This document shows positions 2,663 through 24,720 of a stretch of 34,941 nucleotides of DNA, in pieces (position 1 is the first letter of the stretch; each line of letters begins with the position of its first letter). Under the pieces are notes generated by a model. The model saw nothing but the letters and a program-made list of their open reading frames with translations. It ran no database searches and was not told the origin of the DNA. This DNA is from a virus (lineage: Duplodnaviria; Heunggongvirae; Uroviricota; Caudoviricetes), in IMG/VR virus record IMGVR_UViG_2681813316_000026; one strand, given 5' to 3'. The position numbers and the translations under genes were made by a program.

Positions 2663-3711
2663 GAAATCGTCCCCAGTACCGCCAGTTCGTTTTTCGCAAT
2701 GGAGATATTGTCCACCGGTGCAAGCAACTGATGGCTGTATTCCCCGTTCGCACCGGAAATCGCCTCACTGATACGCGATACCTTGAGTTCTCCCTGCGGA
2801 TAACCATCACGCAGCAGGAACGAACGCAACTCCGCGGTAATGGCAGCCCGTATTTCTGGTGTGTCCGGCGTCACGCGGATATGAAAATCCACCGTATGTG
2901 CCACCGGCCTGAATACATACAAATCAGAGCCTGCCACCGGGGCCAGTGGCCAGATATGTTGTCTTGCTGCCGTTTCCGTTGATTCTTCCGGAATGGGATT
3001 AATCAGGTCACTGCTGGCAATCATCACACCGACAGTTCCCGTTCCCATCCAGTGACGGTATGTCCATGCGCGGGTAATGCCGGGCACTTCTTTAGCCCAG
3101 ACGACATAGTCCCCGTCAGCCCCGCCCTGAGGCGTCCAGTAATACCGCTCAATGACGCGGGCGCGCCACGTTTCCAGCTCTTCAGTATCAAATCCACCTG
3201 TCAGGGTATCTGCCACGCCGGAAGACGGCAGACCATTAACCGGCGTGACCAGGATTAATGACGTACCGTCGTCAGCGTTACCGACCGCGCCTGCACTTGA
3301 GCAGGCGATCGGCACGCGCAGGACACCACCGGAGCTGGTTGCATCGGCAGTTGCCGTGTACTGAACCAGGTCATCGCGCTGAATAACACTCCCGGCGGTC
3401 ACCTTCAGGCCATCGCTGACACCTTCCCAGCGCATATACCCGCTGGCAGCCGTGGCCCCCTTGCGCGGACACCGTTTCATCGCAGCATGTCGCGCCAGCC
3501 AGGACTCATCGCACAGGTCAGGCAGAATGTTCATTGCCAGATAATCGATGTACCCGTAAACCGTATGCAGCGCCGCCGCATACACCTTTGCCCGCACGTC
3601 TTCATCCATGCGCCGGAGCGTGTCGCTGACGTCCAGCCTGGCGAATAAATCGTTACGGAGCATACTGATATTTTCTGCCAGCGTCGGGCGCTGAAATTCA
3701 CTGTCCGCCAT
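2653..3711 (-). CDS. Baseplate J-like protein (Mu gp47 family)
   Basis: 352-aa ORF in the conserved Mu-like order (gp45-gp46-gp47-gp48). Translationally coupled to its neighbours. Confidence 0.75.
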
Positions 3712-4126
3712 GCGTTATCGCACTCCACAGATCATCAAAAGAAATCATTACCGGTCCGTCACGACGCCAGAGAGTGATACTATTACCCAGTTCATTAATC
3801 CCGGTGCGGCGGATATCCAGATCAATACGGGACACCACGCCGTCATCAATCATCCATTGCAGGCATTCGCGGATATACCCCCTTACCGTCTGCACCAGCT
3901 GATTGGTCAGTTTGCTGCGCTGAAGCAGCCACAGTCGGGAGCCGTAACGGTCATTCTGTACCGCAGGCCAGGTATCCCCCCACCATCCCATCGGGACGTC
4001 GGCGTTGTCATCAGGCTCCGCCCGCCGCCAGGTAAACAGGGAAATCACCACGGCGCGGGTCAGCGGATCCAGCGGTGCGCTGGCGCAGGTGCGTTTACCG
4101 TTCACCGTCAGCCACAGTTCCATCAT
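3698..4126 (-). CDS. Baseplate protein (Mu gp46-like)
   Basis: 142-aa ORF between the spike and baseplate J genes, with overlapping start/stop codons. Confidence 0.6.
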   Translation of the reverse strand: MMELWLTVNGKRTCASAPLDPLTRAVVISLFTWRRAEPDDNADVPMGWWGDTWPAVQNDRYGSRLWLLQRSKLTNQLVQTVRGYIRECLQWMIDDGVVSRIDLDIRRTGINELGNSITLWRRDGPVMISFDDLWSAITHGGQ

Positions 4127-19670: not shown

Positions 19671-20021
19671 TCACTTTAACCGTTCACGGGCCGTCTTCGC
19701 CTTATGACACGGCCAGCACAGACTCTGCAGATTACTGTCAGCATCAGTGCCGCCATGCGCTTTAGGGATGATGTGGTCAACAGTTTTCGCCTCACGCACC
19801 ACACCAGCACGCAGACATAATTGACACAGGCCTTTGTCACGCTTCAGAACACGCGCGCGGATACTGTCCCACTTCGAACCGTAGCCGCGCTGATGACGGG
19901 ATTGTCCAGGTTTGTATTGCTTCCAGCCTTCGCTTTTGTGGCTTTCGCAGTAGCCTGAAGGGTCAGTAGTGGTATGGCGGCAGCCGCGAACACGGCAGGC
20001 TTTCGGGGTTCGTGGCGGCAT
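19671..20021 (-). CDS. HNH endonuclease (terminase-associated)
   Basis: Cysteine pairs flanking DHIIPKAHGGTDADSNLQSLCWPCH. Sits immediately upstream of terS. Confidence 0.85.
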   Translation of the reverse strand: MPPRTPKACRVRGCRHTTTDPSGYCESHKSEGWKQYKPGQSRHQRGYGSKWDSIRARVLKRDKGLCQLCLRAGVVREAKTVDHIIPKAHGGTDADSNLQSLCWPCHKAKTARERLK

Positions 20022-20113: not shown

Positions 20114-20434
20114 CTAAATCAGATCACCAATGTATTTTGCACTAATTGAAATTTGCATCTGAGGCATTCCGACCACAGATCCATTTAACAGGTAATCACG
20201 TCCTCGTTCCTGCAAAGAAAGACTCAATTCAAAGTTCTTTACCCCAGGGAAAACCGAGGTGACATTTAAATCATGCTGCGATACGCGCAGAATAAGTTGG
20301 CTACCGTCAATTTTTCCCTGATACGTAAAACCAAAATCTCCGCCGTTTACTGCATTGTTTTTGACAACTACGGTACCATTACCAAAATCACGTTGATTGC
20401 TTCTGAAAACAACAAAATAGATACCATCTTTCAT
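20114..20434 (-). CDS. Moron: small AT-rich hypothetical protein downstream of the lysis cassette
   Basis: 106-aa ORF with an ATG start, low GC, and its own terminator. Confidence 0.5.
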   Translation of the reverse strand: MKDGIYFVVFRSNQRDFGNGTVVVKNNAVNGGDFGFTYQGKIDGSQLILRVSQHDLNVTSVFPGVKNFELSLSLQERGRDYLLNGSVVGMPQMQISISAKYIGDLI

Positions 20435-20796: not shown

Positions 20797-21073
20797 CCGC
20801 AACAGCCACTTTGATATCTTCCTGGGTTCTCTGTGACTCCAGTGCGATCTGCTGTTTTGCATGTTGATTCGCCTCCTGAATGATGTTCGTTATTGCCATA
20901 GTACGCAGAACATTCGCGGTGATAGCCTCAGTAGAATCAGCTCGCTGTTCCGCAGCATCAGCACGCTTCTGCTCCTCCAGAAACTTTCCATGATAGTGAT
21001 TCGCTGACCAGACAAGACCACCAGCGACACAAGCAATAAACGTTAAAATGAGCGCCCAATAACTCATCTTCAT
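20681..21073 (-). CDS. i-spanin (Rz-like)
   Basis: N-terminal transmembrane helix followed by a charged coiled-coil body. Follows the endolysin with a 4-bp overlap. Confidence 0.65.
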   Translation of the reverse strand: MKMSYWALILTFIACVAGGLVWSANHYHGKFLEEQKRADAAEQRADSTEAITANVLRTMAITNIIQEANQHAKQQIALESQRTQEDIKVAVADDDCASRPVPAAAADRLRKYANSLRPGSGSSVTSQPDG

Positions 21074-21684
21074 ACCAGCAGCGCCGCCCGCGCCTTGTTG
21101 TATCGGACCTTACGATCCTCAATACCGTTCAAACCGCCGTTAATGATGCGCGTAACACGGTTAATATCGGCACCGTAGATCATGCAACCTTTAGAGGTGT
21201 AGAACCATGCAGCTGAGCGCGCAGCCTGTAGTTCCTGTTCCAGTTGTTCAGGTGAAGTCACCAGATCTAACTTCAGCGCCGCGCCACAGATGCGATAATT
21301 ATGGAGGCCAGTGATTTGAATTAATCCTCTACCACGATATTTCCAGCCATCACCTGGTGCTTTGTTACCCAGTCGGTTGCTATACACCAGATTGGCAATA
21401 GCATCCTGACGAGCTGCATGTCCGGATGTTCTGCCAAGGGCATCAGCCTGCTGCTGTGTGATCCTCTTTCCGAACGTCGCCACAAGCGCAGATGGTGTGT
21501 AGTTAAGATTTTCAACTACGGCGCTAAACCCCATCGACTCATGGCCTACCTGAGCGATAAACATTGCCTGATCCGCTGGTGCTGTAATGCCGAATTCCTT
21601 CATCGCCGCATCAATGTGCGGAAACCAGCGCGCAGCCAGCCCGGCGCTAATACCAGCCGCCTTTTGAAATAATTGTTGGTTCAT
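21070..21684 (-). CDS. Endolysin, glycoside hydrolase family 19 (chitinase-like lysozyme)
   Basis: FIAQVGHESMGF and GRGLIQITGLHNY motifs. Confidence 0.8.
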   Translation of the reverse strand: MNQQLFQKAAGISAGLAARWFPHIDAAMKEFGITAPADQAMFIAQVGHESMGFSAVVENLNYTPSALVATFGKRITQQQADALGRTSGHAARQDAIANLVYSNRLGNKAPGDGWKYRGRGLIQITGLHNYRICGAALKLDLVTSPEQLEQELQAARSAAWFYTSKGCMIYGADINRVTRIINGGLNGIEDRKVRYNKARAALLV

Positions 21685-21965
21685 TAGTGCCTCAGATGAT
21701 CAACCAGACGTGCAACGTTGCCTCTGACAGCCACCAGCACGGAAAGAAAAATAGTGTTCGCCACGATAATGGGCCATGAGGAATGGGGATAAATCCCACA
21801 GAGATAGGCCAACGGAACAGCACTGTATGTAACAGTAATCAGCCAGGCTAAACGTGAAACCCAAGGACGATGCCGCGAATCACCACGACGATAAAACATC
21901 AGAGTAATAACAACACAAGCACATAACAGCGCATTTATAGTTGCTGTCGGGTCATTTAGCTCCAC
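21684..21965 (-). CDS. Holin-like small membrane protein (second holin or antiholin candidate)
   Basis: 93-aa ORF with about three hydrophobic helices, between holin and endolysin, overlapping the holin 3' end. Confidence 0.45.
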   Translation of the reverse strand: MELNDPTATINALLCACVVITLMFYRRGDSRHRPWVSRLAWLITVTYSAVPLAYLCGIYPHSSWPIIVANTIFLSVLVAVRGNVARLVDHLRH

Positions 21966-22338
21966 CTGAACCTCCCCGGCGCGTTATGAGCGCCACCAGC
22001 GAGCCGATATCCTGATTATTCAGGAACGTCAGGATTTTAACGGCTAAAGCAGAGACGATTACGGCACCAATAGCATCCAGAGGTTTATCACTGTATCCGG
22101 TCAAGTTCGCCAGCTTGGAGCCAACCAACCCAGAGCAAAGAATCCCGGCAATATATGACACGATAAAATATGCCAGTCGGCGCGATGCACTCAGATCTGC
22201 AGCTGTTGCTATGTAGAATACAGCCCCTGCAAATGCGCCAAATACAACGCCGTAATCAGTTCCGGTCAGCAGTCCATAAACACTGGCACCCGTCAGGGCA
22301 CCACCAGCCAGCCCAGTACCGGAAATCGGATCGGACAT
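21952..22338 (-). CDS. Putative holin
   Basis: 128-aa Gly/Ala-rich multi-helix membrane protein, first gene of the lysis cassette. ATG at 22338 with a GAGGGGG ribosome-binding site. Confidence 0.55.
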   Translation of the reverse strand: MSDPISGTGLAGGALTGASVYGLLTGTDYGVVFGAFAGAVFYIATAADLSASRRLAYFIVSYIAGILCSGLVGSKLANLTGYSDKPLDAIGAVIVSALAVKILTFLNNQDIGSLVALITRRGGSGGAK

Positions 22339-22382: not shown

Positions 22383-22410
22383 AACAAAAAAGGCCGCATT
22401 AAGGCGGCCT
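22383..22410 (-). terminator. Rho-independent terminator after the Q-S moron
   Basis: Minus-strand hairpin AGGCCGCC-TTAAT-GCGGCCT followed by TTTTTTG, 19 nt downstream of the 22429 stop. Confidence 0.6.
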
Positions 22411-22428
22411 TGGTAAGGTATAGTTTTT

Positions 22429-23025
22429 TTAAGATAAACTTTGATTGATATACTCATGACACCCAAAAATAAAGGCGTTTTGTGCATCAATAAATGACTT
22501 TTTTTCTTCCGGAGTAAAATACCCTTTTGTAAAACATACTTTTAGCGCTTTTTGAAGATCTGCCGTCAGGGTTATCAACTTACAACCTTCCTCATCAGGC
22601 CTTATTAATAGAAGTAATTTATTTTTACTTATTTCAGCGGCCTTTATTGGAACTTGAATCTCCTCAGGGAAAACACCCTTAGCCAATATATCCATATTCT
22701 TATTTCCGACCAGATGCCATTGCTCAAATGTGCTGGCCAACATAATTACGTCTGTCACATGCTCAGCGCCAGCAAAACGTATTTGTTGCGCCAATTCTTT
22801 ATTAGTATTCAAGTGAGCCTGTAATGTGGCTAAGGCAAAATTTTCTTTGATTGCCCTGTATGCAACCCAACCAGTTATTCCTGCGGCAATAACGCCTGCA
22901 AGAGCAGTAATGAGTGTTTCAAAAGGAAAGGAAGAACTGATTTCAATTGGCGGTAATTTTTCTATTACCAAGGTCAACTCGCCAGTAGTTTTTTCGAAAG
23001 CGTACGGTACGTTTTGCCAAGTCAT
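22429..23025 (-). CDS. Moron: single-pass membrane protein of unknown function between the Q-like gene and the holin
   Basis: 198-aa ORF with ATG at 23025 and an AGGAGG ribosome-binding site. One predicted TM helix (LITALAGVIAAGITGWVAYRAI). AT-rich, flanked by terminators on both sides. Confidence 0.6.
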   Translation of the reverse strand: MTWQNVPYAFEKTTGELTLVIEKLPPIEISSSFPFETLITALAGVIAAGITGWVAYRAIKENFALATLQAHLNTNKELAQQIRFAGAEHVTDVIMLASTFEQWHLVGNKNMDILAKGVFPEEIQVPIKAAEISKNKLLLLIRPDEEGCKLITLTADLQKALKVCFTKGYFTPEEKKSFIDAQNAFIFGCHEYINQSLS

Positions 23026-23054
23026 GAAGCCTCCTGAGTTTCAGAGGAATCATA

Positions 23055-23082
23055 ACAAAAAAACCCGCTCAATGGCGGGCTC
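23055..23082 (-). terminator. tR'-like rho-independent terminator downstream of the Q-like gene
   Basis: Minus-strand hairpin CCCGC-CATTGA-GCGGG followed by TTTTTTT, about 50 nt after the Q-like stop and just upstream of the moron RBS. Confidence 0.55.
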
Positions 23083-23131
23083 TTAATGTTGTGTTGCTCA
23101 GTTCGCTTTAACGTCCCGAGCCTACCACAAT

Positions 23132-23710
23132 TTAAGCACTTTCTTGCTCACTCTGCAACTTAAATCTGTCGCTATTTGTGCCGAATGCGTCACAAACTGG
23201 AGCGTACAGGATCGATTCTGCAAGACTTAGCCAAGTGTCAATGCGTCGACGACAGGTGATCAGCGGCCAGTCAGGATGTTTAGCCTGCAGTTCATTGGCC
23301 ATCTGCAACTTGCTCTTACGAAGACGATACCGGTCAACAATCACGCTATAGAGCGATCGGTAGTCATCATTCATCAGTACTGAAGCAATGACACCGTCCA
23401 CTAACAACCCTTCTTCATCTGAACAGAACGCCAGGCCGCTTTTATTTTTGCTGTTGAGAATTTCACGCAGGTACGCTTCAAGTTCAGGCTTGGTGATACC
23501 CGCTATCTTCATCCGGCGTAGCGCTTCATTGATAGCTGTCTTGGTGATTTTCCCGGATGCCAGAAGCTGGTTAAACATGTTTCCACCACTACCACCGCCG
23601 ATATAAGACCAGCGGCCCCACATGCGCAACTTGCCTTGTATCCAGATACTTTCCAGAGTACGAAGGCGAACCATTTCACCTGATTTGCCAACTTCAGAAG
23701 GATTAATCAT
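23132..23710 (-). CDS. Putative late-gene antiterminator (Q-like)
   Basis: 192-aa ORF, last gene of the nin-like block and immediately upstream of a terminator and the lysis genes. Assigned mainly by position. Confidence 0.45.
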   Translation of the reverse strand: MINPSEVGKSGEMVRLRTLESIWIQGKLRMWGRWSYIGGGSGGNMFNQLLASGKITKTAINEALRRMKIAGITKPELEAYLREILNSKNKSGLAFCSDEEGLLVDGVIASVLMNDDYRSLYSVIVDRYRLRKSKLQMANELQAKHPDWPLITCRRRIDTWLSLAESILYAPVCDAFGTNSDRFKLQSEQESA

Positions 23711-23724
23711 TTAGCATTCTCCAC

Positions 23725-24720
23725 TTACGCCAGTACGCCTATTGCCAGCGCACGATCGATAAAACGAAATATCAGCTCCAGCTGGGAGCCATACTTCTCT
23801 TCAAATGCCACGGTATCCGCATGCAGCTCGTCGTGATGCTTTCTGCACAAAGGCAACACAAAGAGGTCATGCGCTTTTGTTCCCATTCCACCCTGACCGT
23901 GACCTATCAGGTGGTGGGGATCATCAGCAGGCTTTCCACAACATGCACACGGCTGTGTCTTAACCCAGCGCGTGTACTTTTCATTAACCCAGCGGCGACG
24001 TTTTGGGCGTAACATAAAAGACTCCGGCGACTCCGGATCCACTTTCAGCGCCAGCACCTTTTTCGCCTTATCATGGATGATGCTGGTGGCAGGAATCGAA
24101 GGCACAAGGTCACTTTCCCGGGTGACAGACGGCACAACAGGCTTCGGTAATCTCAGTGCCTTACGGGCTGCACTTTCCGGTAAGGCATCCGCCAGGTCAT
24201 TACGAATCAGCCACCAGCACAGTTCCGGCATTGTCACAACGTGACTGTCATCAAAACCGAGATCCCGACGCACAACAGACAACACCCAGCGGGCACAGTT
24301 ATCCGTTGCCATTGATTCCAGCCGTTCCGTGAACTGATCGCGCAGCTGGTTATCGCAGTGCCAGCACAGACGGATCGCGCCCGGCGCGTGTCGTATTGTG
24401 GTCATGTTCTCGCTGTGCCAGTCGGAATGAGGCCACTGACAGCCCTTTTCACGAAGTAACCAGCTTTCAAGACATTCCACGCCACCAGCACGACGGATCA
24501 CTGCCTCATTGCAGAACACGGCCCGAACGGCAGGATCATCCGCCAGCGGTTGTGATGCCGCGGGAACGGCACCACTGGCGAAAGATGAATAACGTTCCGG
24601 CTCAGGCTCCAGCAGGACACGCCCCTGCATAAACAGGGGCATCAGCTCTGAACTGGGTCTGAACAATACGATCCCCATACGCGGGGCTATTTCAGGGGTC
24701 AGTAGTGCTCTCACGGTCAC
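23725..24720 (-). CDS. DUF968-family protein (YdfU-like)
   Basis: C-terminal cysteine/histidine-rich segment QPCACCGKPADDPHHLIGHG...CRKHHDELH, typical of lambdoid nin regions. Confidence 0.55.
   Translation of the reverse strand: MTVRALLTPEIAPRMGIVLFRPSSELMPLFMQGRVLLEPEPERYSSFASGAVPAASQPLADDPAVRAVFCNEAVIRRAGGVECLESWLLREKGCQWPHSDWHSENMTTIRHAPGAIRLCWHCDNQLRDQFTERLESMATDNCARWVLSVVRRDLGFDDSHVVTMPELCWWLIRNDLADALPESAARKALRLPKPVVPSVTRESDLVPSIPATSIIHDKAKKVLALKVDPESPESFMLRPKRRRWVNEKYTRWVKTQPCACCGKPADDPHHLIGHGQGGMGTKAHDLFVLPLCRKHHDELHADTVAFEEKYGSQLELIFRFIDRALAIGVLA

Follow-up and report, generated by a model that had tools for sequence, protein, structure and literature searches.

A predicted membrane-protein moron locked between the Q-like antiterminator and holin genes of lambdoid prophages

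We analysed a 34,941-nucleotide (nt) stretch of a tailed phage (Caudoviricetes; IMG/VR record IMGVR_UViG_2681813316_000026), hereafter the window, with a focus on an open reading frame (ORF) of 198 amino acids (aa) on its minus strand (22429..23025; ATG at 23025-23023, stop codon at 22431-22429). Judged from the sequence, we read this gene as a classical moron, a self-contained promoter-ORF-terminator cassette that would head the late operon. The element as such conforms to the textbook picture of a moron, and its cargo slot is well known; the protein family is an orphan catalogued only as PHROG 18859. In the literature searched, we found no account of how the family is locked to its slot, of a promoter nested within the tail of a terminator, of the topology predicted here or of the allele classes. 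Because the interval between Q and the holin carries the Shiga toxin in Stx phages, other cargo at this site is of medical and ecological interest. Through our analysis, what was an anonymous 'hypothetical protein' becomes a family defined by a fixed address, a compact regulatory design, a predicted topology and specificity-like allele classes.

A previous sequence-only reading of the window had described a low-GC gene for a 198-aa single-pass membrane protein with a strong ribosome-binding site, enclosed by two intrinsic terminators and placed between a Q-like gene and the holin, at the position of the Shiga toxin genes (stx) in Stx phages. All of these elements are present. The Shine-Dalgarno sequence AGGAGG (23035-23030, minus strand) stands 4 nt ahead of the ATG and is kept as AAGGAGG in Enterobacter homologues. 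The ORF has a GC content of 38.4% (32.7% at third codon positions), compared to 51.2% for the whole window and 48-55% for the neighbouring genes. One hydrophobic stretch at about residues 37-56, and no other, predicts a single membrane passage. The two terminators are the elements formerly placed at 23055-23082 and 22383-22410, with slightly shifted boundaries (see below). Moreover, the placement agrees with the Pfam and PHROG matches of the neighbours. Upstream lies a Q-like late antiterminator gene (23132..23710, minus strand, 192 aa), whose product matches Pfam DUF1133 (E = 3.4e-92), more weakly Phage_antitermQ (E = 1.8e-8), and PHROG 753, 'anti-termination protein Q-like' (E = 2.5e-68). 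Downstream follows the lysis cassette (21070..22338, minus strand). The moron shares the strand of Q and of the candidate late promoter PR' and its terminator tR', and is located downstream of these and upstream of the holin, which is the slot of stx.

We surveyed the position of the gene family in 20 loci, equal to 12 clusters at 50% identity, plus one cultured phage (LLS). In 11 of the 12 clusters, the family gene is encoded on the late strand between Q and the holin, usually with no other gene between it and Q, and in phage LLS it is likewise found between Q and the holin. The exception, L156, is the weakest member and lies near an integrase. The Q proteins ahead of the family gene fall under four Pfam models (DUF1133, PF03589 of the lambda type, PF06323 and PF06530), and the cassettes after it comprise holin_8/holin_3_7 with GH19, holin_3_1 with CHAP, a holin_3_1-like gene with GH19, holin_2_1 with lysozyme and, in phage LLS, a pinholin with a signal-anchor-release (SAR) endolysin. 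A coupling to one holin type was not seen: the family goes along with several lysis cassettes, and a terminator separates the gene from the holin. The ORF is also intact in remnant or degraded prophages from which most of the phage is gone (Enterobacter hormaechei L002-4, Serratia L155, and L153), and the promoter motif described below is kept there as well.

The Q-holin slot is a variable cargo hotspot. Some phages carry HicAB with a 161-aa ORF, Mom or DNA methylases at this site, and a further cargo ORF is secreted-nuclease-like, as judged by our own sequence reading without a family-library scan. In cryptic Escherichia coli prophages, porin and cold-shock genes occupy the slot from Q-PR'-tR' to the holin. 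Other E. coli prophages with near-identical holin genes contain unrelated anonymous ORFs in place of the moron gene, and their DNA homology to the window begins at ~22383-22411, i.e., at the downstream terminator. Cargo ORFs in this slot include one of 85 aa in L149 (3467-3724), one of 261 aa in L150 (3481-4266), one of 198 aa on the opposite strand in L151 (2409-3005) and two of 264 and 89 aa in L152 (3496-4290 and 4500-4769). None of these had a Pfam or PADLOC match beyond a sub-threshold match of the 89-aa ORF to DUF2513 (E = 2.4e-4; 21.8 bits at a cut-off of 29.6). Phage HK97 has no annotated gene between Q and holin.

The gene appears to carry a promoter of its own. The extended -10 element TGTTATGAT (23049..23057, minus strand; TG at 23057-23056, hexamer TATGAT at 23054-23049) is built into the T tail of the upstream terminator, has no matching -35 element and predicts a transcript start near 23042. 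The consensus TGnTAnnAT was found 30-38 nt ahead of the ATG in 11 of the 20 loci, corresponding to 6 of the 12 clusters, which share only 24-35% protein identity among each other. As controls at the same offset, shuffled upstream regions contained it in 2.1% of cases and other ORFs of the same loci in one out of 205. Phage LLS has the motif at -33. A scan of viral contigs for a hairpin tail joined to GYTATGAT yielded 20 sites with a proper hairpin, 17 of which precede a family member, several of these being further alleles. The 60 nt upstream of the ATG are conserved and appear to be under selection, as synonymous sites are saturated among the close homologues. The 'cryptic promoter' that the sequence-only reading had considered thus takes the form of a conserved extended -10 element at a fixed offset, and at the level of sequence the gene has the promoter expected of a moron.

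On its 3' side, the cassette is closed by an intrinsic terminator between the moron and holin genes (22384..22411, minus strand; hairpin 22411-22390 followed by a T run), with a folding energy of -14.3 kcal/mol (z = -4.0 against dinucleotide shuffles). A script search revealed a comparable terminator hairpin 3' of the ORF in 11 of the 20 family loci. On its 5' side stands the tR'-like intrinsic terminator (23057..23084, minus strand; hairpin 23084-23059 followed by a T run; -16.4 kcal/mol, z = -4.4 by the same measure). This upstream hairpin is near-identical in E. coli, Serratia and Citrobacter loci, and we considered it as a marker of the family. We rejected this, since a viral-contig scan for the hairpin found it before many unrelated genes, e.g., major tail genes. 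Its sequence is a generic enterobacterial phage terminator with at least 120 matches. The same hairpin together with TGCTATGAT was also observed ahead of an unrelated 225-aa ORF (MDIINLIELLKPQD...) at ~446-462 of the viral record IMGVR_UViG_3300048887_000342 (L184). From this locus, the terminator-promoter unit may be a feature of the slot behind which ORFs are exchanged.

Between Q and the upstream hairpin, we read a candidate late promoter PR' with a pause-type element from the sequence (23119..23158, minus strand). It consists of a -35 element TTGCAG (23158-23153), an 18-nt spacer and a -10 element TAAATT (23134-23129) that overlaps the Q stop codon, and is followed 4 bases on by the -10-like TAGGCT (23124-23119). 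The PR' promoter of phage lambda has this layout, with a sigma-dependent pause element. The arrangement TAAATT-N4-TARGCT is conserved 3' of DUF1133 genes in the window, in the viral contig L100 and in Serratia L013, and Serratia L155 has the variant TAACTT-N4-TAAGCT. By analogy to lambda, the segment would function as PR' with a qut-like site, and the upstream hairpin would act as tR' and yield a terminated RNA of ~70 nt. DUF1133 is listed in Pfam as a 'domain of unknown function'. The presence of a lambda-PR'-like promoter and terminator after DUF1133 genes supports, by the same analogy, that DUF1133 proteins are true Q-type antiterminators.

The ORF is a real gene under purifying selection and not a chance ORF. 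A word-indexed search of 5.8 billion proteins yielded only 11 clusters, from E. coli and, at 70-75% identity, Enterobacter. Comparison of the window with three Enterobacter loci gave nonsynonymous divergences (dN) of 0.13-0.19 and synonymous divergences (dS) above 2 or saturated, and this dN/dS of ~0.07, found in every protein region against homologues of 70-75% identity with saturated synonymous sites, is the basis for our conclusion. Around 35 more distant members of 190-232 aa came from an exhaustive profile search over 1.84 billion representatives, a second indexed search found members in Citrobacter and Serratia, and locus searches found members in Pectobacterium and Pantoea. The family is an uncharacterised one of the Enterobacterales, and none of its members carries a Pfam domain or a name that indicates a function. 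The sequence-only reading had recognised no family, and the sole match is indeed PHROG 18859 of unknown function, which covers residues 1-198 of 198 (E = 7.3e-91) and is matched by 51 of 51 aligned family members. No paper mentioning the family, a function for PHROG 18859 or the RefSeq accession was found in the literature searched. When 50,697 phage genomes were searched by tblastn, the window protein gave no match and the distant members matched phage LLS only. The moron protein shows no similarity to toxin or virulence families, and neither a signal peptide nor a lipobox was found in it.

The identical region is present in 32 of 5426 complete E. coli genomes of unrelated hosts and serotypes, from humans, animals and water. 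In E. coli strain D10, the product is WP_000220228.1 ('hypothetical protein') and is encoded in a full lambdoid prophage adjoining a tRNA-Thr gene and proA. E. coli EC93 is a further strain with this prophage.

The protein consists of an acidic N-terminal tail (residues 1-36; 23025-22918, minus strand), a transmembrane (TM) helix (residues 37-56; 22917-22858) and a helical bundle (residues 57-198; 22857-22432). AlphaFold reached a predicted local distance difference test score (pLDDT) of 81.8 with an alignment of 51 sequences, compared to 41 with ten close sequences. In this model, residues 1-33 are unstructured, one helix (residues 35-107) comprises the TM segment and the first bundle helix, and the helices 121-140, 145-167 and 172-196 complete a four-helix bundle. 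The N-tail is acidic in 51 of 51 members, with a mean of 1.9 K/R versus 4.4 D/E, and the 15 residues after the TM helix are basic in all 51, with 3.0 K/R versus 1.2 D/E. Judging from the positive-inside rule applied to this charge bias, the protein is probably a bitopic inner-membrane protein with a periplasmic N-tail and a cytoplasmic bundle. The members contain zero to three cysteines each and no conserved cysteine pairs. A search with a Protein Data Bank (PDB) sequence profile returned non-significant matches to coiled coils or bundles only; one of the candidates, Csx28 (E = 8.3), was set aside as chance.

Conservation is distributed unevenly along the chain. Mean pairwise identity amounts to 39% in the N-tail and 47% in the TM helix, and falls to 24% for residues 57-107 and 17% for the remainder. 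The N-terminus carries the motif MxWxGxPF ... K(I/L)P ... SFSWE, the TM helix shows a stripe of small residues at positions 41, 44, 48, 51/52 and 55, and the helix that follows contains near-invariant N62, Q69 and R83 at heptad spacing. In the model, we read the small-residue stripe and these three residues as one conserved helix face. The protein is therefore a probable homo-oligomer, or has a fixed partner.

A comparison with the viral contig L100 reveals how the alleles differ. L100 matches the window both upstream of the ORF (DUF968 gene, Q, PR', tR' and promoter) and downstream of it (holin), at 72-77% DNA identity. In a BLAST alignment of the two, DNA homology reaches no further than 12 nt into the ORF and is picked up again in the downstream terminator; the two moron proteins are only 29% identical. 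Members of one clade show strong purifying selection along the entire protein, whereas between clades the bundle is almost unrecognisable. As far as the sequences tell, this is the pattern of discrete specificity types whose alleles are swapped precisely at the level of the ORF.

These features can be combined into a model of how the cassette might work. In a lysogen, transcripts from the constitutive PR' would halt at the upstream hairpin, and the -35-independent extended -10 element TGTTATGAT would drive the moron gene, which we thus expect to be expressed in the lysogen. The downstream terminator would shield the holin genes from moron transcription. After induction, Q-modified RNA polymerase would pass both terminators, giving strong moron transcription ahead of the lysis genes. 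At the protein level, the work at the membrane would fall to the conserved part (N-tail, TM helix and first helix), and specificity would be set by the divergent, allele-swapped bundle.

As to function, we favour phage-phage competition by a lysogen-expressed protein, i.e., phage exclusion or abortive infection, and hold this tentatively, at somewhat less than an even chance. The cassette design, the retention in decayed prophages, the conflict-type neighbours, the membrane location and the allele swapping argue for it. Since it is the membrane portion that is conserved, and since the variable domain is predicted to lie in the cytoplasm, we think an abortive-infection or sensor-effector mode somewhat likelier than a block of DNA entry. 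A sub-variant with another mechanism, which we regard as unlikely, is superinfection exclusion: like Imm, SieA or gp15, the protein would keep phage DNA from entering across the inner membrane. A single-pass membrane protein from a moron would suit it, as would the very conserved N-terminal motif (MxWxGxPF ... KIP ... SFSWE) beside the membrane. However, most of the protein is predicted to lie in the cytoplasm, the predicted periplasmic part is the most conserved and not the most variable one, and Pfam reveals no sequence similarity to known superinfection exclusion (Sie) families. If the topology were inverted, the variable bundle would be turned towards the incoming phage and the entry block would become the better reading. 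In its most specific form, the competition reading makes the family an unrecognised single-protein, membrane-anchored anti-phage immunity module with discrete specificity alleles, hard-wired to the Q-holin slot by its terminator-promoter cassette, switched on in lysogens and boosted at induction. Here, a variable cytoplasmic bundle could be mounted on a conserved oligomerising scaffold of N-tail and TM helix. We consider this module possible, if doubtful. A defence or exclusion function would establish a new single-gene membrane system and make the Q-holin slot a defence hotspot of lambdoid phages.

Several observations weigh against this model of expression and function. Half of the clusters lack the extended -10 element at the said offset. 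In L139, L141 and L143 the motif is absent and the ATG follows ~15-20 nt after the hairpin, so that the gene must be read from upstream. In searches with the window protein and the distant members, Pfam and NCBIfam gave no match, and no defence model of PADLOC-DB v2 matched the window protein (E <= 1) or any of four distant members (E <= 0.1). A structure search produced no significant match beyond generic four-helix bundles. Furthermore, a frameshifted allele of 224 aa with an altered C-terminus (P0002; 16 member sequences in E. coli, e.g. NZ_CP049845.1) exists; the gene is decaying in these strains and is thus dispensable in some E. coli. A membrane-active effector that is produced as soon as late transcription begins also risks premature holin triggering, and the strict Q-holin linkage could equally mean a job in the late or lysis phase.

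The last point leads to a membrane-acting, holin-independent accessory protein of the phage's own lytic cycle, for which lysis timing, membrane conditioning or the blocking of re-infection of an already infected cell are possible roles. The position on the late strand of the Q-holin interval in 11 of 12 clusters would fit, as would the lack of room for a promoter in the three loci just mentioned and the membrane location, which most lysis factors share. Nevertheless, we deem such a late-phase role quite improbable. The sequence-only reading had set homology to an antiholin or another lysis accessory protein against its own interpretation; a search of Pfam and PHROGs with the 51 members revealed no homology to holins, antiholins, spanins or releasin-type proteins. 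The association with several unrelated lysis cassettes makes specific holin binding unlikely, and a terminator, not translational coupling, lies between gene and holin. In addition, the ORF has stayed intact in remnant prophages that lack a full lysis or structural module, and close E. coli relatives have the same holins next to unrelated cargo, showing that the lysis cassette works without the moron. If true, this role would add a new, holin-independent element to lambdoid lysis biology. Alternatively, the protein might be a lysogenic-conversion factor that alters host physiology (envelope stress tolerance, signalling or colonisation), as do bor, lom and the prophage porins. The predicted promoter and the terminator of the moron, its retention in decayed prophages and the occurrence of one identical allele in 32 unrelated E. 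coli genomes of human, animal and water origin agree with this, and the modelled fold resembles the four-helix bundles of sensors. Yet an arms race accounts better for discrete alleles that diverge so strongly and are exchanged with ORF precision. In E. coli the gene is a rare one, present in 32 of 5426 genomes, and a signal peptide, a lipobox and virulence-family similarity are all missing from the protein, leaving conversion with a low probability in our view.

With respect to known systems, the cassette is closest in design to the morons of HK97 and HK022 (e.g., HK97 gene 15), with which it shares an atypical composition, its own terminator, a candidate promoter, an insertion between genes that are adjacent in related phages and a membrane-protein product. 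The anatomy proposed by the sequence-only reading holds and is strengthened through comparative data. HK97 gp15 itself is annotated as 'moron product' with a terminator after it. Its length of 62 aa and its different slot, in the tail region, led us to set it aside as a relative: the protein described here has 198 aa and an unrelated sequence, and its gene lies in the Q-holin slot with a promoter overlapping the upstream terminator tail. The second parallel is stx, which in Stx phages sits at this site too, on the same strand and 3' of the late promoter and terminator. Judging from this stx-like position after PR' and tR', the moron gene would therefore be amplified on induction. Unlike at stx, no tRNA genes were found at this Q-holin cargo slot, the product lacks toxin homology and is a predicted integral membrane protein instead of a secreted one, and a second terminator insulates the holins.

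The modelled bundle is reminiscent of four-helix-bundle sensors (TorS, NarQ, McpN, Tar/Tsr and HK9), a likeness in fold only. The moron protein has no sequence or Pfam match to them, no second TM helix and no output domain, and its bundle is predicted to be cytoplasmic, whereas that of the sensors is periplasmic and lies between two TM helices. Since talin, catenin and designed bundles score almost as well, the sensor match reflects a generic fold. Finally, P22 SieA/SieB, T4 Imm, lambda RexB and lactococcal Sie2009 are likewise small prophage-encoded inner-membrane proteins, as is predicted for the moron product, and their expression in the lysogen is known. They differ from it in genomic position and share no sequence similarity with it by Pfam, PHROG and PADLOC.

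Phage LLS (HER 843) is a cultured phage that grows on E. coli K-12 (PMC12315714) and thus offers a tractable experimental system; GenBank gives its family member a wrong start codon. In the GenBank record of this region, genes 49 and 50 look mis-called (PQ299149.1 38639-39273, equal to L158 3469-4103). The family ORF runs from 3498 to 4103 of the locus, corresponding to PQ299149.1 38668-39273, encodes 201 aa and begins with ATG TGG CAA GGT ATA CCA TTT (MWQGIPF). 'Gene 49' starts within the -10 element and is probably spurious, and 'gene 50' starts at an internal ATG.

The lysis cassette downstream of the moron, assigned by Pfam and PHROG matches, comprises genes for Phage_holin_8 (21952-22338, minus strand, 128 aa), Phage_holin_3_7 (21684-21965, minus strand, 93 aa) and a GH19 endolysin (21070-21684, minus strand). 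The ORFs beyond the endolysin are read as Rz/Rz1-type. The two holin genes (21684-22338) are arranged in tandem with a 14-nt overlap, and this pair recurs across many prophages of E. coli and Citrobacter. Together they might act as holin and antiholin, or as a two-component holin.

A second low-GC cargo gene (39%) is located between the Rz/Rz1 and the HNH/terminase genes (20114-20434, minus strand, 106 aa). Its product is GrlR-like, with a Pfam GrlR score of 26.7 bits at a cut-off of 26.8 and an NCBIfam GrlR match (E = 2e-10) far under the cut-off of that model. It also matches PHROG 2483 (unknown), and its RefSeq homologue is named 'GrlR family regulatory protein'. Tai defence genes lie upstream of the module for packaging (PMC11364771), which is the slot of this second gene; as this is not the Q-holin slot, we ruled out the Tai systems as a match for the moron. 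The prophage further contains two HNH-type genes. One encodes a 116-aa HNH endonuclease directly ahead of the terminase genes (19671-20021, minus strand), the other a 331-aa DUF968/HNHc_6 protein directly ahead of Q (23725-24720, minus strand), and a DUF968 gene precedes Q in most of the related loci that we examined.

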